The position numbers were made by a program, and so were the translations under genes. A stretch of 64,000 nt of DNA from Candidatus Magasanikiibacteriota bacterium (GTDB taxonomy: Bacteria; Patescibacteriota; Patescibacteriia; Magasanikbacterales; GWA2-37-8): NCBI GenBank assembly GCA_963840935.1, contig CAWJAS010000001.1, positions 192,875 through 256,874 on the forward strand, read 5' to 3'. Each line of letters opens with the position of its first letter. Position 1 is the stretch's first letter. This document shows positions 16,028 to 59,304 of the stretch, piece after piece. Below the pieces are notes generated by a model. That model did no database searches and had not been told where the DNA came from. It saw only the letters and a list, made by a program, of their open reading frames with translations.

Positions 16028-16055
16028 AATAGCCGGAGTAAAGGCTATTTTTTTG
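16028..16055. terminator. Bidirectional terminator between parB (+) and rel (-)
   Basis: aatagcc-ggagtaaa-ggctatt + T-run. Confidence 0.55.
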
Positions 16056-17550
16056 TTGGCATTGGCCAGATTGAAGCCAGCCAATTTTTTTTCTGTGAGT
16101 TTAAGTAGTGCTTTATTTGTTGGCGAGCGGCGTTTGTTTTGATAAATTTCAACCAGTCACGGCTGGGTCCTTTTCTGTTTTTATCGACAATAATTTCCAC
16201 CACATCGCCACTCTTTAACGGAGTATCAAGCGATACCATTTGGTCGTTAACCAGAGTGCTGTTGCATTTGTTACCTATGTCTGAGTGAATTTGGTAGGCG
16301 AAGTCAACCGCGGTAGCGTTTTCCGGCAAATCAATCACATCGCCCTTTGGCGTGAAAACGAAAATTCTATTTTGAAAAAAATCAATTTTTAAAACATCCA
16401 AATCGGATAAATTATTAAATACGTCTTTTTGAATTTTTGCCAATTCTTGGGCCCAGGCGACGTTTTTATCAGAGCTTTTAACTGGTTTTTTATTTTCGTG
16501 ATAATGCCAATGAGCGGCGATACCGAATTCAGCCGCTTCGTGCATTTCCATAGTGCGTATTTGGAATTCGACGATATGCCCCTCATCGCAAAAAACAGTC
16601 GTGTGCAAAGATTTGTAGCCGTTAGGTTTCGGCTGGGATATATAGTCTTTTATTCTTCCTTTTAACGGCCTCCAAAGTTTATGAATAATACCAAGAACCG
16701 CATAACAATCGTTAATGTTTGAAACAATTATGCGGACAGCCACAATATCATAAATTTGCTCGGTATCCCAATTTTTTTGTTTTAATTTTAAGTATAAACT
16801 ATATAATCGCTTGTTACGGCCGTGTATGTCAATTATTTTTATGCCGGTGTTTTTGATTTCCTTTTTTACGAAGGACATTATTTTTTCCAAATAATTTTTT
16901 TCAACAGACGTAAATGACTCGCTGATATCACAAACTTTTTTATAGTCATTTGGAAAAACATATGGAAAAGACAAATCTTCCAATTGGCCTTTGAATTCAC
17001 CCATGCTTAAGCGGTTGGCGATTGGGGCATAAATTTCTAAGCTTTCAAGAGCGATGCGGTATTGTTTGTTCACGGGCATTGATTCAAGAGTTTTGAGATT
17101 GTGAATCCGGTCGGCAAATTTTATAATCATTACCCGAATATCCTCGGCCATGGCAATAAACATTTTGCGTAAATTTTCGATATATCTTTCAACCCCGCGG
17201 TATTTGATGGCGCTTAACTTAGTGATTCCTTTAATCATGTTTGACACGTCCTTTCCAAAGTTTTCTTCAATTTCTTCTAAAGTGATTTTTGTATCTTCGG
17301 GCACGTCGTGGAGCAGGGCGGCGATAATAATATTGATGTCGATTTTTAAAAGCGCGAGAATATAGGCGGTTGATAGGGGGTGAATAATATACGATTCTCC
17401 ACTATGCCTTAATTGACCACTATGGGCATTGGAGGCAAAATCAAAAGCTAACCGTGCCATTTCCAAGTCGTCGCGGTCGCAATATTGCTTTAATTCCTTA
17501 TATAGGTCGTTTTCAGTTATTTTCTTTGGCAATACAATTTCCGTATTCAT
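16045..17550 (-). CDS. rel: Bifunctional (p)ppGpp synthetase/hydrolase, RelA/SpoT homolog (short form, HD + synthetase + TGS)
   Basis: HD motif LLHDVPEDT, synthetase region (RIKDYISQPKPNGYKSLHTTV) and a C-terminal TGS-like region. Confidence 0.85.
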   Translation of the reverse strand: MNTEIVLPKKITENDLYKELKQYCDRDDLEMARLAFDFASNAHSGQLRHSGESYIIHPLSTAYILALLKIDINIIIAALLHDVPEDTKITLEEIEENFGKDVSNMIKGITKLSAIKYRGVERYIENLRKMFIAMAEDIRVMIIKFADRIHNLKTLESMPVNKQYRIALESLEIYAPIANRLSMGEFKGQLEDLSFPYVFPNDYKKVCDISESFTSVEKNYLEKIMSFVKKEIKNTGIKIIDIHGRNKRLYSLYLKLKQKNWDTEQIYDIVAVRIIVSNINDCYAVLGIIHKLWRPLKGRIKDYISQPKPNGYKSLHTTVFCDEGHIVEFQIRTMEMHEAAEFGIAAHWHYHENKKPVKSSDKNVAWAQELAKIQKDVFNNLSDLDVLKIDFFQNRIFVFTPKGDVIDLPENATAVDFAYQIHSDIGNKCNSTLVNDQMVSLDTPLKSGDVVEIIVDKNRKGPSRDWLKFIKTNAARQQIKHYLNSQKKNWLASIWPMPTKK

Positions 17551-17604
17551 AATTGATCATTTTTTTCACATCTTATTATTTAATTGTAAAGATTTATTGG
17601 AGTC

Positions 17605-17633
17605 TTGACAAGAGGCCGATTTTATGATATAAT
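17605..17633 (+). promoter_or_regulatory. Consensus sigma70-type promoter TTGACA-17 nt-TATAAT
   Basis: TTGACA at 17605-17610, 17-nt spacer, TATAAT at 17628-17633. No protein-coding gene follows. Confidence 0.6.
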
Positions 17634-17639
17634 AACGAA

Positions 17640-18147
17640 TGTGATGCTAAGGCTTAATGCCGCAAAGATCCGTCCCTTTATTGGGCCGGATCTTCTGTTT
17701 TTATTTGACATGTTTTTGATTTATGCTATACTTATTCAGCCACGAGAGGTTCTGGTCGCGCGCTCCTTCTGTTCCTTTATCAGGCACAGCCCAAACCCGG
17801 GGCGTGTGCGCTCGAAATCGCTCAATAGCAGAGCGGGCGATTTCAGATGAGTTCCTGCATGGTCCTGCGTTTTCGCGAAGTGCGATGTTTGATCCCCTCC
17901 TGGCTGGAGTGACACAAGGTTCGAATGTCCAAAAAAAGAGTTTTTCTGCAGTCCATGCAACGGGTAGCGGCTTCTCGCCTTTGGGGAAGCCGCGTTTTTA
18001 TTTCTGCTCGCTTATCTTGATTATTTATGCGAATTGTGATATATTCAAATTTGCGGGAGGCGATCGGTCCTTAGCATCACCTTTGGCATTAAGGTTAACC
18101 TTTCGCCCCCGCACTAAAAAACCATGCATCTAAGCATGGTTTTTTAT
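17640..18147 (+). ncRNA. Putative about 500-nt structured ncRNA of unknown class (GC-rich, promoter-driven, ends at a strong intrinsic terminator)
   Basis: GC-rich island with no credible ORF: the ORFs in this stretch are Ser/Arg/Ala-rich and lack an SD. The 5' segments GUGAUGCUAAGG and CUUAAUGCC(GC)AAAG are exactly complementary to the 3' segments CCUUAGCAUCAC (18069-18080) and CUUUGGCAUUAAG (18081-18093). There is an internal hairpin at 17665-17694. The terminator is ccatgcatctaagcatgg + T-run at 18122-18147. Confidence 0.4.
18111..18147. terminator. Bidirectional intrinsic terminator (A-run, ccatgcat-ct-aagcatgg, T-run) shared by the ncRNA (+) and topA (-)
   Basis: Perfect 8-bp stem flanked by an A-run and a T-run. 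Confidence 0.7.
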
Positions 18148-20391
18148 TTATTTCTTTTTTACTTTTTTTACTTTTTCTTTACTTATTTCTCCGGCGCATA
18201 ATTTGTTACTGCATTTAGTTTCGCCTTTTTTTGTTTCAACCATTGATTCACCACATTTTGGGCATTTGTCTCCGGTTGGTTTATCCCATAAAGCAAATTC
18301 ACATTTGGGATAGCGGTTACAGCCAAAAAATATTTTTCCGCGCTTTGTTTTTCGCTGGATCATTTCTCCTTCACCACATTTTGGGCATTTGATATTAATT
18401 TTAATTTCAATACTTTTTATATTTTTGCATTTTGGATAAGCGCTACAGCTCAAAAACGGTCCGTAGCGTCCGACTTTTCGTACCATCGGCTCACCGCATT
18501 TGTCGCATACTTCATCTGTTGGGGTAGCTTCAATTTCCGCCGGCAATTCCTCGCCGGGTAATGGTTTGGTGTTTTTGCAAGTCGGATAGGCGGAACAAGC
18601 CATAAATTTTCCGAACCGTCCAATCTTTATTATCATTGGCGCTCCACATTTATTGCACACTTCATCGGTTTTTTCTTCCGTCAATTCTTTTTTTGAAAGT
18701 TCCTTATCCTTTTTTTCCAAGTTATCACTGAATGGGCCGTAAAAATCCGCGATAATCGGTCGCCATTCTTTTTCACCGGATGCAATACTATCAAGGTTTT
18801 CTTCCATTTCCGCGGTGAATTTGTAATCAACAATATTTGGGAAATGTTCCACCAATAAGTCGTTAACCAAGTAGGCAATTTCTTTTGGAAACAGCTTTTT
18901 TTTATCATCGCGTTCCACATAGCCTCGGTCTTCAATTGTGGCAATTGTCGGGGCATATGTTGAAGGTCGACCAATGCCGTGTTCTTCCATAACTTTTACC
19001 AAAGTAGCGTCCGAGTATCTGCCCGGCGGTTCGGTAAAATGTTGTTCCGGTTTTAATTCTTCGCATTTTAAAGAAGTGCCTTTCTCAATTTTTGGCAAGA
19101 AATTTTCTTTTGTTTTTTCGGGATACAGTTTTAAAAAACCCGGGAAAACAATGTTTTGACCGTTCGCTCGAAAAACATATTTGTTATCCGAATCAATATC
19201 TATATTGGAATTATTTATTTTTGCCACGGCCATTTGCGAAGCCACCGCTCGACGCCATATCAAATCGTATAATTTATATTGGTTATTATCCAAATGACTC
19301 GCGATGCTTTCCGGATTAACGCTCGCTTCGGTCGGGCGAATAGCTTCATGCGCTTCTTGCGCGTTTTTGCTTTTTTTCTTAAAAGTTCTATATTCTCCGT
19401 TATAATAATCCGCGCCAAAATCACCCACAATAGCAATCTTCGCGTCCTCAAGGAATTTTTCTGATAAATTTGTTGAGTCGGTTCTCATATAGGTGATTAA
19501 ACCGACCGAACCGCTAGTTCCCAATTCAACTCCTTCATAAAGTTGTTGGGCGATGCGCATGGTTTGCTTGGCGGAAAAACCTAGACGGTGATTCGCTTCT
19601 TGTTGCAGGGTTGAAGTGGTGAAAGGCGGAGCCGGTTGGCGGTTTGTCAATTTGTCTTCGGTATTTTGCACCAAATATTTTGCACCGTTCAAATCACTTA
19701 AAATTTTATTGATGTCTTCGTTGTTTTTTAAATCCATTTTATCCAATTTTCCAGTAGGGGTAGAAATCAATTTTGCGGTAAATGGTTCGTTGATTGAGTC
19801 GGCAAATATTCCGTCCAAACTCCAATACTCTTCGGAAATAAAATTTTTAATTTCGCGTTCTCGTTCCACCACCAACCGCACGGCGACTGATTGCACTCGA
19901 CCGGCCGATAATCCTTTGGCCACTTTGCGCCAAAGAAAAGGGGAGAGCTTGTATCCGACCAATCTATCCAGTATGCGACGAGCTTGTTGGGCGTCCACCA
20001 GATTAAAATCCAACTTGCGGGGATTTTTTAGGGCGTGTTCTATGGCCGATTTGGTAATTTCATGAAAAGTGATTCGTTCGATTTTTTTTTCATTTACTCC
20101 GAGAATAGATGATAAGTGCCAAGAAATAGCTTCTCCTTCGCGGTCCTCATCGGTAGCGAATAGTATTTTATCGGATTTTTTTGCCGAATCTTTCAATTCT
20201 TTAACGGTTTTTGATTTATCTTTGGCGACAGTATATTTTGGTTCAAAATTATTTTCAATATCAATACCCAGTTCCTTTTTTGGCAAATCGCGCACATGGC
20301 CAAAAGAGGACTTTACAATAAAATCTTTTCCTAAAAATTTGGAAATGGTTTTGGCTTTTGCCGGCGACTCCACAATTACCAATGTTTTCAT
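18148..20391 (-). CDS. topA: DNA topoisomerase I with C-terminal zinc-ribbon repeats
   Basis: TOPRIM N-terminus MKTLVIVESPAKAKTI...GHVRDLP. Multiple C-terminal C4 zinc ribbons (CxxC...CxxC, four times). Confidence 0.9.
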   Translation of the reverse strand: MKTLVIVESPAKAKTISKFLGKDFIVKSSFGHVRDLPKKELGIDIENNFEPKYTVAKDKSKTVKELKDSAKKSDKILFATDEDREGEAISWHLSSILGVNEKKIERITFHEITKSAIEHALKNPRKLDFNLVDAQQARRILDRLVGYKLSPFLWRKVAKGLSAGRVQSVAVRLVVEREREIKNFISEEYWSLDGIFADSINEPFTAKLISTPTGKLDKMDLKNNEDINKILSDLNGAKYLVQNTEDKLTNRQPAPPFTTSTLQQEANHRLGFSAKQTMRIAQQLYEGVELGTSGSVGLITYMRTDSTNLSEKFLEDAKIAIVGDFGADYYNGEYRTFKKKSKNAQEAHEAIRPTEASVNPESIASHLDNNQYKLYDLIWRRAVASQMAVAKINNSNIDIDSDNKYVFRANGQNIVFPGFLKLYPEKTKENFLPKIEKGTSLKCEELKPEQHFTEPPGRYSDATLVKVMEEHGIGRPSTYAPTIATIEDRGYVERDDKKKLFPKEIAYLVNDLLVEHFPNIVDYKFTAEMEENLDSIASGEKEWRPIIADFYGPFSDNLEKKDKELSKKELTEEKTDEVCNKCGAPMIIKIGRFGKFMACSAYPTCKNTKPLPGEELPAEIEATPTDEVCDKCGEPMVRKVGRYGPFLSCSAYPKCKNIKSIEIKINIKCPKCGEGEMIQRKTKRGKIFFGCNRYPKCEFALWDKPTGDKCPKCGESMVETKKGETKCSNKLCAGEISKEKVKKVKKK

Positions 20392-32331: not shown

Positions 32332-33555
32332 TTATAACTGTACCTCATATATTCCCGTCTGGTATGTATCAACGAACAAAAGGCGATTATTTGTTTCGTC
32401 AAACGAGACACTATCTATTGAATAATCTCCGCCAGTATCAATTGGTGTTTTTAATCCGGTGGTCAGATCGATTTTATATAAATTATCAGGAATGCCGTCG
32501 GCAATTTTTGGTTGGATGCCGGCGCCTTGGGGCAGGTAGCTGGGTACTGCGCAATATACCGTGGTATCGCCGGCAAATGCGCATTTTTCCGGCCAGGTAT
32601 TAATTTCCAGATTCTGCCTGTGAGACCCGATTTCTTGGCCGTAGGAATTCACAATCCATAATTCCGGTTTTAAGTCCGAGCGGTTGCTGTATACGCTATA
32701 AAGAAGTTTTTTGCCGGTCGGTGACCACTCTGATTCAAAACCCATACCTTCAACCACTAATGATTTGAAATTTTCTCCGTTTAACCCGACAAGCAAAACT
32801 TCTTTGCGGTACATTCCCAAAGCTTCTCCAGTCATGGAAAAAGCGACTGTTTGTCTGCTCGGGGACCAGTCGATAGTTACTTTGTCTTGGTTACTACCCA
32901 TTTCTTCAATTATTTTTGTTCCCGTTCCGTCGTCGTTCACCGTAACAAGCCAGCGATTTTCTTCCGACAAACCGATCGCTTTGGCGGCAATTTGCGAGCT
33001 GTCATCGGAAAAAGAAAATTCTTCCCAATGTTTTGGTAAAGTGTATTGTTTTTGCGTGTCAAAGTTATAAATAATTTTTGAGTTATCCGGATACTCCAAA
33101 ACCGCCTTGTCGGCATTTTTTGCCCAAGTTACGTTTTCAACATTATAAAAAGTTTCCCCGCTCAAATCTTTGGTTGAACCGTCCGGCAAAACTTTGTAAA
33201 ACTTTCCGTCGAAAGAATTGTAATAACGCATATCGCCAGCTTTGCCCAAGGAAGAATAGTTTGCCGGCTCGCTGGTTAATTGTTTTACCGGTTCGGGGCG
33301 ATAATAGCTTGGCTCCACTCCGGGGATATATCCGGCTACCGGTAAAGCCGTTTCACCGGTGACTCCCGGTACCGTAGTGGTCGCTCTTTCGCCGGCAGGG
33401 GGGAGGGCGCCCGGAGTTCCGGGTTCACCTGGTTCGGTTGGCACATAAGCCAGTGGGCCCGCTTTTTTAAAAAAATAATACAAAGCAAAAGCTAATAGGG
33501 CGGTCACAACTATTAAGCCAATGATTAGTAATATTCTTTTTAGTTTTGCGGACAT
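32332..33555 (-). CDS. TolB-like WD40/PD40 beta-propeller protein, N-terminal membrane anchor and Pro-rich linker
   Basis: PD40-like repeats (IDWSPSRQTVAF, SEWSPTGKKLLY). Confidence 0.55.
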   Translation of the reverse strand: MSAKLKRILLIIGLIVVTALLAFALYYFFKKAGPLAYVPTEPGEPGTPGALPPAGERATTTVPGVTGETALPVAGYIPGVEPSYYRPEPVKQLTSEPANYSSLGKAGDMRYYNSFDGKFYKVLPDGSTKDLSGETFYNVENVTWAKNADKAVLEYPDNSKIIYNFDTQKQYTLPKHWEEFSFSDDSSQIAAKAIGLSEENRWLVTVNDDGTGTKIIEEMGSNQDKVTIDWSPSRQTVAFSMTGEALGMYRKEVLLVGLNGENFKSLVVEGMGFESEWSPTGKKLLYSVYSNRSDLKPELWIVNSYGQEIGSHRQNLEINTWPEKCAFAGDTTVYCAVPSYLPQGAGIQPKIADGIPDNLYKIDLTTGLKTPIDTGGDYSIDSVSFDETNNRLLFVDTYQTGIYEVQL

Positions 33556-58921: not shown

Positions 58922-59203
58922 ATGAATAAAGCCAGCTTGGCGCAAGTGTTATCAGAAAAATTAAACATTTCCAAAAAGGACGCCGAGGATACAATTAATA
59001 CAATGGTTGATGTAATTATCGATACCTTAAAAAAAGGAGAAGAAGTGGTTTTAACGGGTTTTGGGGCGTTTAGCGCAAAAACACGAGCCGGACGCATTGG
59101 AGTTAATCCACAAAATCCTTCGGAAAAAATTACGATTCCTTCAGTTGTCGTCCCAAAATTCAAGGCCGGGAAAGCGCTTAAAGACGCATTAAAAGGTAAA
59201 TAA
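58922..59203 (+). CDS. hup: HU family DNA-binding protein (AT-rich, native-like paralog)
   Basis: MNKASLAQVLSEKLNISKKDAEDTINTMVDVIIDTLKKGEEVVLTGFGAFSAKTRAGRIGVNPQNPSEKITIP. Confidence 0.9.
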   Translation: MNKASLAQVLSEKLNISKKDAEDTINTMVDVIIDTLKKGEEVVLTGFGAFSAKTRAGRIGVNPQNPSEKITIPSVVVPKFKAGKALKDALKGK

Positions 59204-59261: not shown

Positions 59262-59304
59262 CAAGGCCGGGAAAGCGCTTAAAGACGCATTAAAAGGTAA
59301 ATAA
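59262..59304 (+). repeat. Direct repeat of the last 43 bp of the HU gene (59161-59203), 58 bp downstream
   Basis: Exact duplication caaggccgggaaagcgcttaaagacgcattaaaaggtaaataa. Confidence 0.7.

Follow-up and report, generated by a model that had tools for sequence, protein, structure and literature searches.

Three candidate small RNA genes in the relA–topA spacer of a Magasanikbacteria genome, two of them with co-varying complementary segments

Introduction

Several described pairs of bacterial RNAs come close to the locus reported here, the relA–topA intergenic spacer in a 64,000-nucleotide stretch of DNA from a Candidatus Magasanikiibacteriota bacterium (the whole stretch is called the window below). 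RNA-OUT and RNA-IN of IS10 form an antisense pair in which a loop meets a 5′ end, and CopA and CopT form a kissing-loop antisense system. Small RNA (sRNA) sponges, or anti-sRNAs, titrate an sRNA that acts in trans, as SroC does with GcvB and RosA with RoxS and FsrA. The par locus of plasmid pAD1, with its RNA I and RNA II, is a type I toxin–antitoxin system in which RNA I encodes the Fst toxin peptide. We know of no small regulatory RNA that has been characterized in any lineage of the candidate phyla radiation (CPR), or Patescibacteria, and our literature search turned up no report of small regulatory RNAs in Magasanikbacteria, nor of CPR RNAs like these.

The spacer (positions 17,551–18,147, 597 nt) lies between two minus-strand genes, relA and topA. 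The first-pass annotation of this DNA had assigned it a single structured non-coding RNA (ncRNA) of about 500 nt. We propose instead, with a probability of roughly 60%, that the spacer contains three independently transcribed ncRNA genes, as follows. The first, A, would be an sRNA; the third, C, its dedicated partner RNA; and B, between them, a mobile or accessory structured RNA. The A:C pair matches no described RNA family. A cis-antisense pair of the RNA-OUT/RNA-IN or CopA/CopT type was rejected, as A and C share a strand and do not overlap, being separated by about 400 nt. A type I toxin–antitoxin locus was likewise rejected, there being no conserved small toxin open reading frame (ORF) in A, B, or C.

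Relatives of the locus were collected by taking 80 relA loci from species-representative genomes and adding nine loci through close RelA homologs; individual loci are cited by L numbers. The relatives of the RelA protein are from Magasanikbacteria and other Patescibacteria. RelA identity to the window is 96% for L201, 95% for L202, 90% for L203, and 76–78% for L204 and L205.

Three Tandem Units in the Spacer

A consensus scan together with RNA folds divides the plus strand of the spacer into three tandem promoter-to-terminator units (Table 1). The promoter noticed in the first-pass annotation, a TTGACA and a TATAAT separated by 17 nt, is a perfect consensus match with a TG extension. It is the promoter of A, and its −35 and −10 boxes are conserved among relatives. 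The promoters of B and C and the terminator of B had gone unnoticed in that annotation. The B promoter is kept in L201 and recurs in L337 (88.6% identity over 35 nt). In the C promoter, the TTGATT is invariant across the five sequences aligned, and a promoter-like site is found directly upstream of C in every relative. Altogether there are eight promoter-like sites in the spacer versus 2.1 ± 1.6 in shuffled sequences, a four-fold excess.

The intrinsic terminator previously placed at the end of the region is also there, a 13-pair stem and a T-run. It ends 1 nt ahead of the topA stop codon and is bidirectional, being common to C on the plus strand and topA on the minus strand. The terminator of A was missed by the strict rules of the terminator scan and was seen through inverted repeats and the fold; its hairpin and U-run, at about 17,662–17,702, have a folding energy of −23.7 kcal/mol and a z-score of −3.97. 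This early hairpin with its U-run had been taken for an attenuator. The structure stands; the function does not, since with internal promoters and terminators found, the hairpin is better read as the terminator of a short first RNA. Among relatives, the sequence of the A terminator varies, and a hairpin with a U-run is always kept.

The relatives conserve none of the ORFs that the window has in A, B, or C, in agreement with the earlier view that the region is non-coding. Judged by its predicted sigma-70-type promoter and Rho-independent terminator, and by having no conserved ORF, each of A, B, and C is a candidate stand-alone sRNA gene.

Two observations concern the start of the first unit. 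The −35 box of A (TTGACA, 17,605–17,610) is within a near-palindrome, TCTTGACAAGA. On the minus strand, a promoter-like site (TTGTCA, 17-nt spacer, TACAAT; 17,611–17,583, 10/12) faces relA and overlaps the −35 box of A. As the two divergent promoters have bases in common, they could compete for RNA polymerase. In this region (17,583–17,633), close relatives have invariant ATTGTA and CTTGACAAG blocks.

Proposed Pairing between A and C

The first-pass annotation had reported two exact long-range complementarities between the 5′ and 3′ parts of the region, GTGATGCTAAGG with CCTTAGCATCAC and CTTAATGCC with GGCATTAAG, and had noted that the two pairings cross. These statements are correct. In terms of the three units, the pairing joins the first 21 nt of A with both halves of the apical hairpin of C. 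We call the pairing with the 5′ half of the C apex helix I and that with the 3′ half helix II. By simple arithmetic, a 12-nt exact inverted repeat has a chance expectation of about 0.01 within 600 nt.

The complementarity was followed in relatives, using 17 genomes for a gap-free alignment of helix I and 18 genomes for individual duplexes and the z-scores of helix II; 500 shuffles and slid registers served as the null for covariation in helix I and in the C hairpin. Helix I is present in all 18 genomes with A that were tested, with 11–14 contiguous pairs and, in two genomes, a single internal mismatch. In the register that maximizes pairing, 96.6% of the alignment cells are paired, versus 22–53% in slid registers, and seven of the 12 pairs show double compensatory changes, a score that none of the 500 shuffles reaches. 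The changes can be extensive: helix I is GGUGAUAUUUGGG/CCCAAAUAUCACC in L030, AAAUGUAAGGGU/ACCCUUACAUUU in L041, and GGUAAUAAUAAGGU/ACCUUAUUAUUACC in L025 and L029. Comparison of L041 with L030 indicates that the helix I sequence is nearly fully replaceable with pairing retained.

In 18 of 18 genomes, helix II exceeds in stability the duplexes formed by shuffled A segments (z from −2.0 to −5.9, mean −3.6). Distant members have a longer, interrupted helix II, together with a longer linker or an extra hairpin in A. The AAAG/CUUU helix that had been appended to this pairing does not hold up: it shows no covariation, L203 keeps AAAG in A while its C has CAUA, and the AAAG is inside the terminator stem of A. 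Cognate A:C duplexes have a mean energy of −22.2 kcal/mol versus −15.0 for non-cognate combinations, a gap of about 7 kcal/mol. The alignments thus indicate that A:C complementarity is maintained by compensatory changes across species. G·U pairs are frequent in helix I, in helix II, and in the stem of C itself, and this argues that selection is on the plus-strand RNA and not on DNA.

In every genome, the A seed, which is the start of helix I, is 6–7 nt past the −10 box of A, and it is therefore expected at the 5′ end of the RNA. C is a long hairpin followed by a terminator, and its fold z-score is −7.4 if the terminator is included and −4.8 if the hairpin is taken by itself. Within the C hairpin, 90.5% of cells are paired (42–54% in slid registers) and 14 of 20 pairs have double changes, again a score reached by 0 of 500 shuffles. 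The apical loop is 14 nt long and conserved, and its core, AUCACC..GGCAU, is the most conserved sequence within C. Since the strand order is I–II in A and likewise in C, and since C has a lower stem, the complex would be a three-way junction with pseudoknot topology. For the window, its summed energy is about −18.7 kcal/mol, made up of −18.9 for helix I and −11.0 for helix II less the costs of opening the apex of C and a small hairpin in A.

Table 1. Features of the relA–topA spacer and the flanking genes; positions are those of the window.
Feature	Position	Strand	Description
Promoter of sRNA A	17605-17633	+	TTGACA, 17-nt spacer, TGaTATAAT; 12/12, TG extension
sRNA A	17641-17702	+	about 62 nt; unpaired 5′ seed, then intrinsic terminator; predicted ends
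Helix I strand of A	17641-17652	+	GUGAUGCUAAGG; pairs with 18069-18080, 5′ half of C apex
Helix II strand of A	17653-17661	+	CUUAAUGCC; pairs with 18085-18093, 3′ half of C apex
Intrinsic terminator of A	17662-17702	+	bulged stem 17662-17698, U-run 17698-17702 (five U); inverted repeat I3
Promoter of sRNA B	17705-17732	+	TTGACA, 16-nt spacer, TGcTATACT; 11/12, TG
sRNA B	17739-17999	+	about 260 nt; GC-rich, structured, own predicted promoter and terminator, between A and C
CU-rich stretch of B	17763-17775	+	CUCCUUCUGUUCC; kept in each of the four B sequences
Most conserved hairpin of B	17783-17809	+	GGCACAGCCCAAACCCGGGGCGUGUGC; nearly invariant, one compensatory A-U to G-C change
Long-range helix of B	17856-17959	+	UGCAUGG 17856-17862 with CCAUGCA 17953-17959; encloses variable domain
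Intrinsic terminator of B	17967-17999	+	stem 17967-17993, 10 pairs (7 G-C), then T-run
Promoter of sRNA C	18017-18045	+	TTGATT, 17-nt spacer, TGtgaTATATT; 9/12, TG
sRNA C	18052-18150	+	about 100 nt; long hairpin 18053-18112, then terminator
C apex	18069-18093	+	helix I strand 18069-18080, linker 18081-18084 (4 nt), helix II strand 18085-18093
Terminator of C/topA	18115-18146	both	13-pair stem, A-runs and T-runs flanking both sides
relA (RelA/SpoT family)	16045-17550	-	start codon at 17550
topA	18148-20391	-	stop codon 18148-18150

Distribution and Separability of A and C

Twenty related CPR genomes carry C at this locus; it was found in 18 by a search of the relatives' relA loci with a covariance model of C and in two more by blastn. 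As in the window, it is always upstream of relA and on the opposite strand to relA. A adjoins C in 19 of these 20 genomes, the exception being L003. The carriers of A and C include genomes labelled Magasanikbacteria and Falkowbacteria. The neighbors of the locus, parA, parB, relA, topA, and dprA, are housekeeping genes that are present with or without the RNAs.

The interval between A and C varies from no insert to about 1 kb. The gap from the A terminator to the C promoter is almost nil in L001, L009, L011, L012, L030, L202, L203, L206, and L041, and in the first eight of these A and C are about 100 nt apart with no insert. It is about 300 nt and filled by B in the window, L201, L204, and L205. 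It reaches up to about 1 kb where it contains other GC-rich promoter/terminator units (L002, L336, and L337) or an ORF (L049). The A terminator and the C promoter are retained in every case, whatever the insert, and this combination of a variable insert with retained signals argues strongly against one obligatory transcript. Since the two ends keep their own promoter and terminator and covary while the middle varies, the pairing is best read as intermolecular; that is, A and C probably pair in trans and not in cis.

The inserts deserve a description of their own. The GC-rich, promoter/terminator-bounded units are at 2930–3800 in L002, 1960–2330 in L336, and 1480–2330 in L337 (minus strand of each locus); one unit is common to L002 and L337 and ends in ...CGCGCCTAGYCATTG..GGGCGAAGTCGGG... 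The intervals of L003 (3270–3870) and L049 (2740–3720) contain unrelated ORFs of about 200–230 aa. The relA–topA spacer looks like an insertion hot spot.

sRNA B

The first-pass annotation had made a GC-rich island the body of its structured RNA, set in surroundings of 37% GC. The island itself is real, reaching 58% GC at 17,714–17,947 in 150-nt windows; the figure for its surroundings is not borne out, as the window has a mean GC of 40.8%. The island is not the body of the A:C structure either. It corresponds to a separable third RNA gene, B, which by alignment is a clean indel of about 300 nt, present in L201 and absent in L202, L203, and L001, and absent also in L009 and others. The insertion is bounded by a 10-nt direct repeat (D3), GTTTTTATTT. 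Since close relatives are without it, B is not an essential housekeeping RNA.

The B family has four members, namely the window, L201, L204, and L205. The window and L201 copies are 84.8% identical, with several indels of 1, 2, and 10 nt, and as these shift the frame there is no conserved ORF in B. As a yardstick of constraint, we used identity between the window and L201, with the third codon positions of relA (65.5% identical) as the reference. A is 100% and the C hairpin 96.8% identical over the same pair. B is therefore constrained, less so than A and C, and by this comparison it is under purifying selection.

The conserved parts of B are as follows. Its CU-rich stretch resembles an anti-Shine-Dalgarno sequence, a likeness from which we infer a possible seed role. 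A nearly invariant hairpin (Table 1) is accompanied by a second hairpin whose sequence differs between subgroups. Three of the four sequences (window, L204, and L205) independently give the long-range helix in their minimum free energy (MFE) folds, and the extension of this helix covaries, being GCAUGaUUUU/AAAACAUGC in L204 and GCAUGuUCUCG/CGAGACAUGC in L205. The terminator shows compensatory U-A to C-G changes among relatives, and a conserved AACGGGUAGCGGC motif runs into it. Homology of B to the GC-rich units of L002, L336, and L337 was considered and is unsupported by pairwise alignment and by profile nhmmer; only the B-type promoter and junction recur elsewhere, in L337. In the data searched, viral contigs included, B has no detectable relative beyond its four-member family. 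The duplexfold program, given the long inputs of B versus A or C, returned uninterpretable long-loop solutions.

Searches for Known Families

The earlier statement that the region belongs to no recognizable family is confirmed. At gathering thresholds, Rfam finds only five tRNAs in the whole window and nothing in the spacer; at E ≤ 10, the segment 17,500–18,250 gives only sub-threshold chance matches on terminators or promoters. Eight relatives gave only tRNAs, and L002 only sub-threshold matches. One of the weak matches in the window, to RNA-OUT, has 21.7 bits against a gathering threshold of 41, is over a promoter, and is attributed to chance. None of OLE, ROOL, GOLLD, raiA, and HEARO reached the gathering threshold in the window. 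ARAGORN reports no tmRNA in the window, and inspection of C found no T-arm before a putative acceptor strand. RNase P RNA, tmRNA, SRP RNA, and 6S RNA are excluded as identities for B or for A plus C by Rfam, by ARAGORN, and by close relatives that are without B.

A metagenome scan with the 14-base loop pattern CATCACCNNTGGCATT gave, among the matches listed (80 loci), only the loop pattern as judged by the covariance model. In viral contigs, all matches to CATCACCNNTGGCATT and to a longer pattern were rejected by the covariance model, and the B signature had 0 matches. A replication origin or terminus at the locus was considered and rejected, as cumulative GC skew follows gene orientation only.

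Proposed Mechanism and Alternatives

Our best guess is that A is an antisense sRNA whose 5′ seed opens the apex of C, and that C is a sponge or decoy, or else a regulated RNA. The predicted layout of A is that of a classic base-pairing sRNA, with an unstructured 5′-terminal seed followed by a terminator hairpin. Pairing might proceed in four steps. The extreme 5′ end of A would touch the exposed loop of C. Pairing would then extend down the 5′ strand of the top stem of C, forming helix I (12–16 bp). The next segment of A would pair with the 3′ strand thus set free and with the rest of the loop, forming helix II (9–16 bp). In the end, the apical stem of C would be exchanged for two intermolecular helices seated on an intact lower stem, in a three-way junction. 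The likely outcome would be mutual sequestration or duplex-dependent cleavage. B might act in trans as an sRNA, through its conserved CU-rich stretch.

A number of points weigh against this proposal. The promoters, 5′ ends, and terminators of A, B, and C are consensus predictions, and transcription of the three units is likewise predicted. The register of helix I was chosen by maximizing pairing, which inflates the percentage of paired cells, although not the number of double changes. As there is no linker between the two segments of A and one of only 4 nt in C, both helices together would be sterically tight, and they may form in sequence or alternately instead of together. RNAcofold of A with C, pseudoknots excluded, gives little or no net gain; the program cannot represent crossing helices and so understates the A:C complex. 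Read-through from A to C is possible, and the same helices could then form in cis. B, folded by itself, is no better than shuffles (z −1.1). The pair is patchy: C is in only 13 of the 63 CPR relA loci searched, L004, L008, and L016 lack C and have a short spacer between relA and topA, and L003 carries C and has no A or other partner within its 9.5-kb locus. No ORF or other obvious effector element was seen in C. Lastly, among the translation starts of the 64-kb window, including those of relA and topA, no target stands out for the A seed or the C loop, the best having −19.8 kcal/mol versus a mean of −11.0 ± 3.9.

Among the alternatives, the one that survives best is that A and C are two obligatory halves of one bipartite structured RNA, for example a protein scaffold. 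It would account for two promoters that are strong and apparently constitutive, for genes that are side by side as a rule, and for covariation in both intermolecular helices. The loop and seed sequences (AUCACC/GGUGAU and GGCAU/RUGCC) are conserved beyond the needs of pairing, and no nearby non-coding sequence is as constrained as A and C. All the same, neither a one-piece version nor an associated protein gene was found, C stands in L003 with no A beside it, and free C is already a very stable hairpin. The pair is absent from many close lineages as well, and it is therefore not a universal housekeeping RNA. We hold the bipartite RNA to be unlikely, though worth keeping in mind. A bolder form of the idea, which we rate as quite unlikely, is that A and C make up an obligate two-piece, trans-assembled, pseudoknotted RNA of a new class confined to the CPR, and that ncRNA cassettes land preferentially in the interval between them. 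The cassettes would be B and the unrelated GC-rich promoter/terminator units of L002, L336, and L337.

The reading of the first-pass annotation, one RNA of about 510 nt (17,641–18,150) whose 5′ and 3′ ends close into a pseudoknot and whose internal hairpins are attenuators or structural elements, is improbable. Its outer promoter and outer terminator are real, the full stretch folds better than shuffles (z −4.3) with the 5′/3′ helix in the MFE structure, and some read-through is plausible, terminators being never fully efficient. Nevertheless, the stretch is split by two internal consensus promoters with TG extensions and by two internal canonical terminators, and in all relatives C is preceded by a conserved promoter of its own. 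The middle 300 nt are missing in loci whose RelA is 95% and 90% identical (L202 and L203) and in L001 and L009. Elsewhere, the interval contains unrelated units or ORFs, up to about 1 kb, and the pairing still covaries.

It is highly improbable that the inverted repeats act in the DNA, as an invertible promoter switch, as the ends of a miniature inverted-repeat transposable element (MITE), or as protein-binding sites: they do flank a promoter-bearing segment, with an apparent insertion hot spot between them and a direct repeat bounding B, but the repeat pairs are not mirror-ordered (centres about 17,860 versus 17,873, no single palindrome), departures from Watson–Crick pairing are mostly G·U on the plus strand, which would be mismatches in DNA and A·C on the other strand, the left repeat starts exactly at the predicted transcription start, the surroundings contain no gene for a recombinase or transposase, A and C have one copy only in the window, and blastn of the region against phages and plasmids gave no match.

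Other Features of the Window

The first-pass annotation had likened parts of the spacer to GC-rich repeat modules in tsaD and fpg. This likeness was not recovered, as the quoted 19-mer occurs once, at 51,488, and blastn of the region against the window gives only short AT-rich words.

Repeats of other kinds are present elsewhere. A tRNA-Glu gene (55,152–55,224) is followed by extra copies of its 3′ end, CGATTCCCGTTGGGGCTAC at 55,396 and a partial copy at 55,633 (segment 55,152–55,660). The copies are separated by inserts of 65–71% GC that have CCCGAAGGGGTCCCTTTGGGA in common, and a terminator-like hairpin comes after each copy. The segment looks like the product of serial insertions at a tRNA 3′ end, or like a tRNA-linked repeat array. 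A 63-nt tandem repeat in seven copies (55,901–56,467; 61–100% identity) is probably within a coding region. Identical 43-nt direct repeats (D11) are at 59,161–59,203 and 59,262–59,304, 101 nt apart. The most GC-rich non-RNA island near the spacer (33,218–33,524, 65% GC) belongs to a minus-strand ORF, of which it forms the Gly/Pro-rich N-terminal part, and is not an RNA gene.

Significance and Comparison with Known Systems

CPR organisms have tiny genomes and few known regulators, and the locus supplies three candidate sRNAs backed by covariation. Neighboring sRNAs with co-evolved complementarity, in two blocks and in permuted order, would be found in at least two candidate phyla, Magasanikbacteria and Falkowbacteria, and the A:C pairing is precise enough for compensatory mutations to be designed directly. 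The spacer also appears to gain and lose structured RNA genes from one near-identical genome to another. Should the pair prove to be a regulatory switch or a bipartite ribonucleoprotein, it would be a new entry point to RNA-based control in ultra-small symbiotic bacteria; if it is an sRNA with its sponge and nothing else, it would be a tidy yet ordinary addition to a known theme.

Of the described large and structured RNAs, OLE, ROOL, GOLLD, raiA, and 6S are resembled by B in its being GC-rich, non-coding, bounded by a promoter and a terminator, and a few hundred nt long, with conserved hairpins in an AT-rich genome. B differs from them in matching none even at E ≤ 10, in its narrow range of four genomes, in its fast evolution, and in a presence that varies among near-identical genomes. 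The two-piece (permuted) tmRNA is a model for A and C insofar as its genes adjoin and conserved helices, one of them at a 5′ end, keep its pieces together. A and C differ in that they are without a tRNA-like domain, T-arm, tag frame, ARAGORN call, or Rfam tmRNA match. Each appears to have its own promoter and terminator instead of being processed from one precursor, and they are absent from many close relatives.

The pAD1 par locus shares with A and C the arrangement of two small RNAs in one short locus, with dispersed blocks of complementarity and a bidirectional terminator at the end. In contrast to par, no conserved ORF is present in A, B, or C, and A and C run in the same direction, whereas the par RNAs converge. 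Known sRNA sponges are like the proposed A:C system in being dedicated ncRNAs, encoded in trans, with a long site that complements the seed of another sRNA. However, known sponges are usually recognized through the mRNA targets of the sRNA, and none stands out in this window. The adjacency of the A and C genes throughout would be unusual for a sponge, and their pairing, 21–30 nt in two blocks, is longer than a typical seed.

In mode of recognition, the proposed A:C pair is like RNA-OUT/RNA-IN and CopA/CopT. As there, a free 5′ end would recognize the apical loop of a stable hairpin in the partner, with pairing that can invade the stem, and the hairpin RNA would be short, abundant, and ended by a terminator. 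The differences are three. A and C come from two distinct genes on one strand and not from opposite strands of one segment; therefore, selection must maintain their complementarity, which indeed covaries. The target of A would be a non-coding hairpin RNA and not the translation start of an mRNA. Finally, consecutive segments of A would capture both strands of the C stem, giving a three-way junction and not one duplex.

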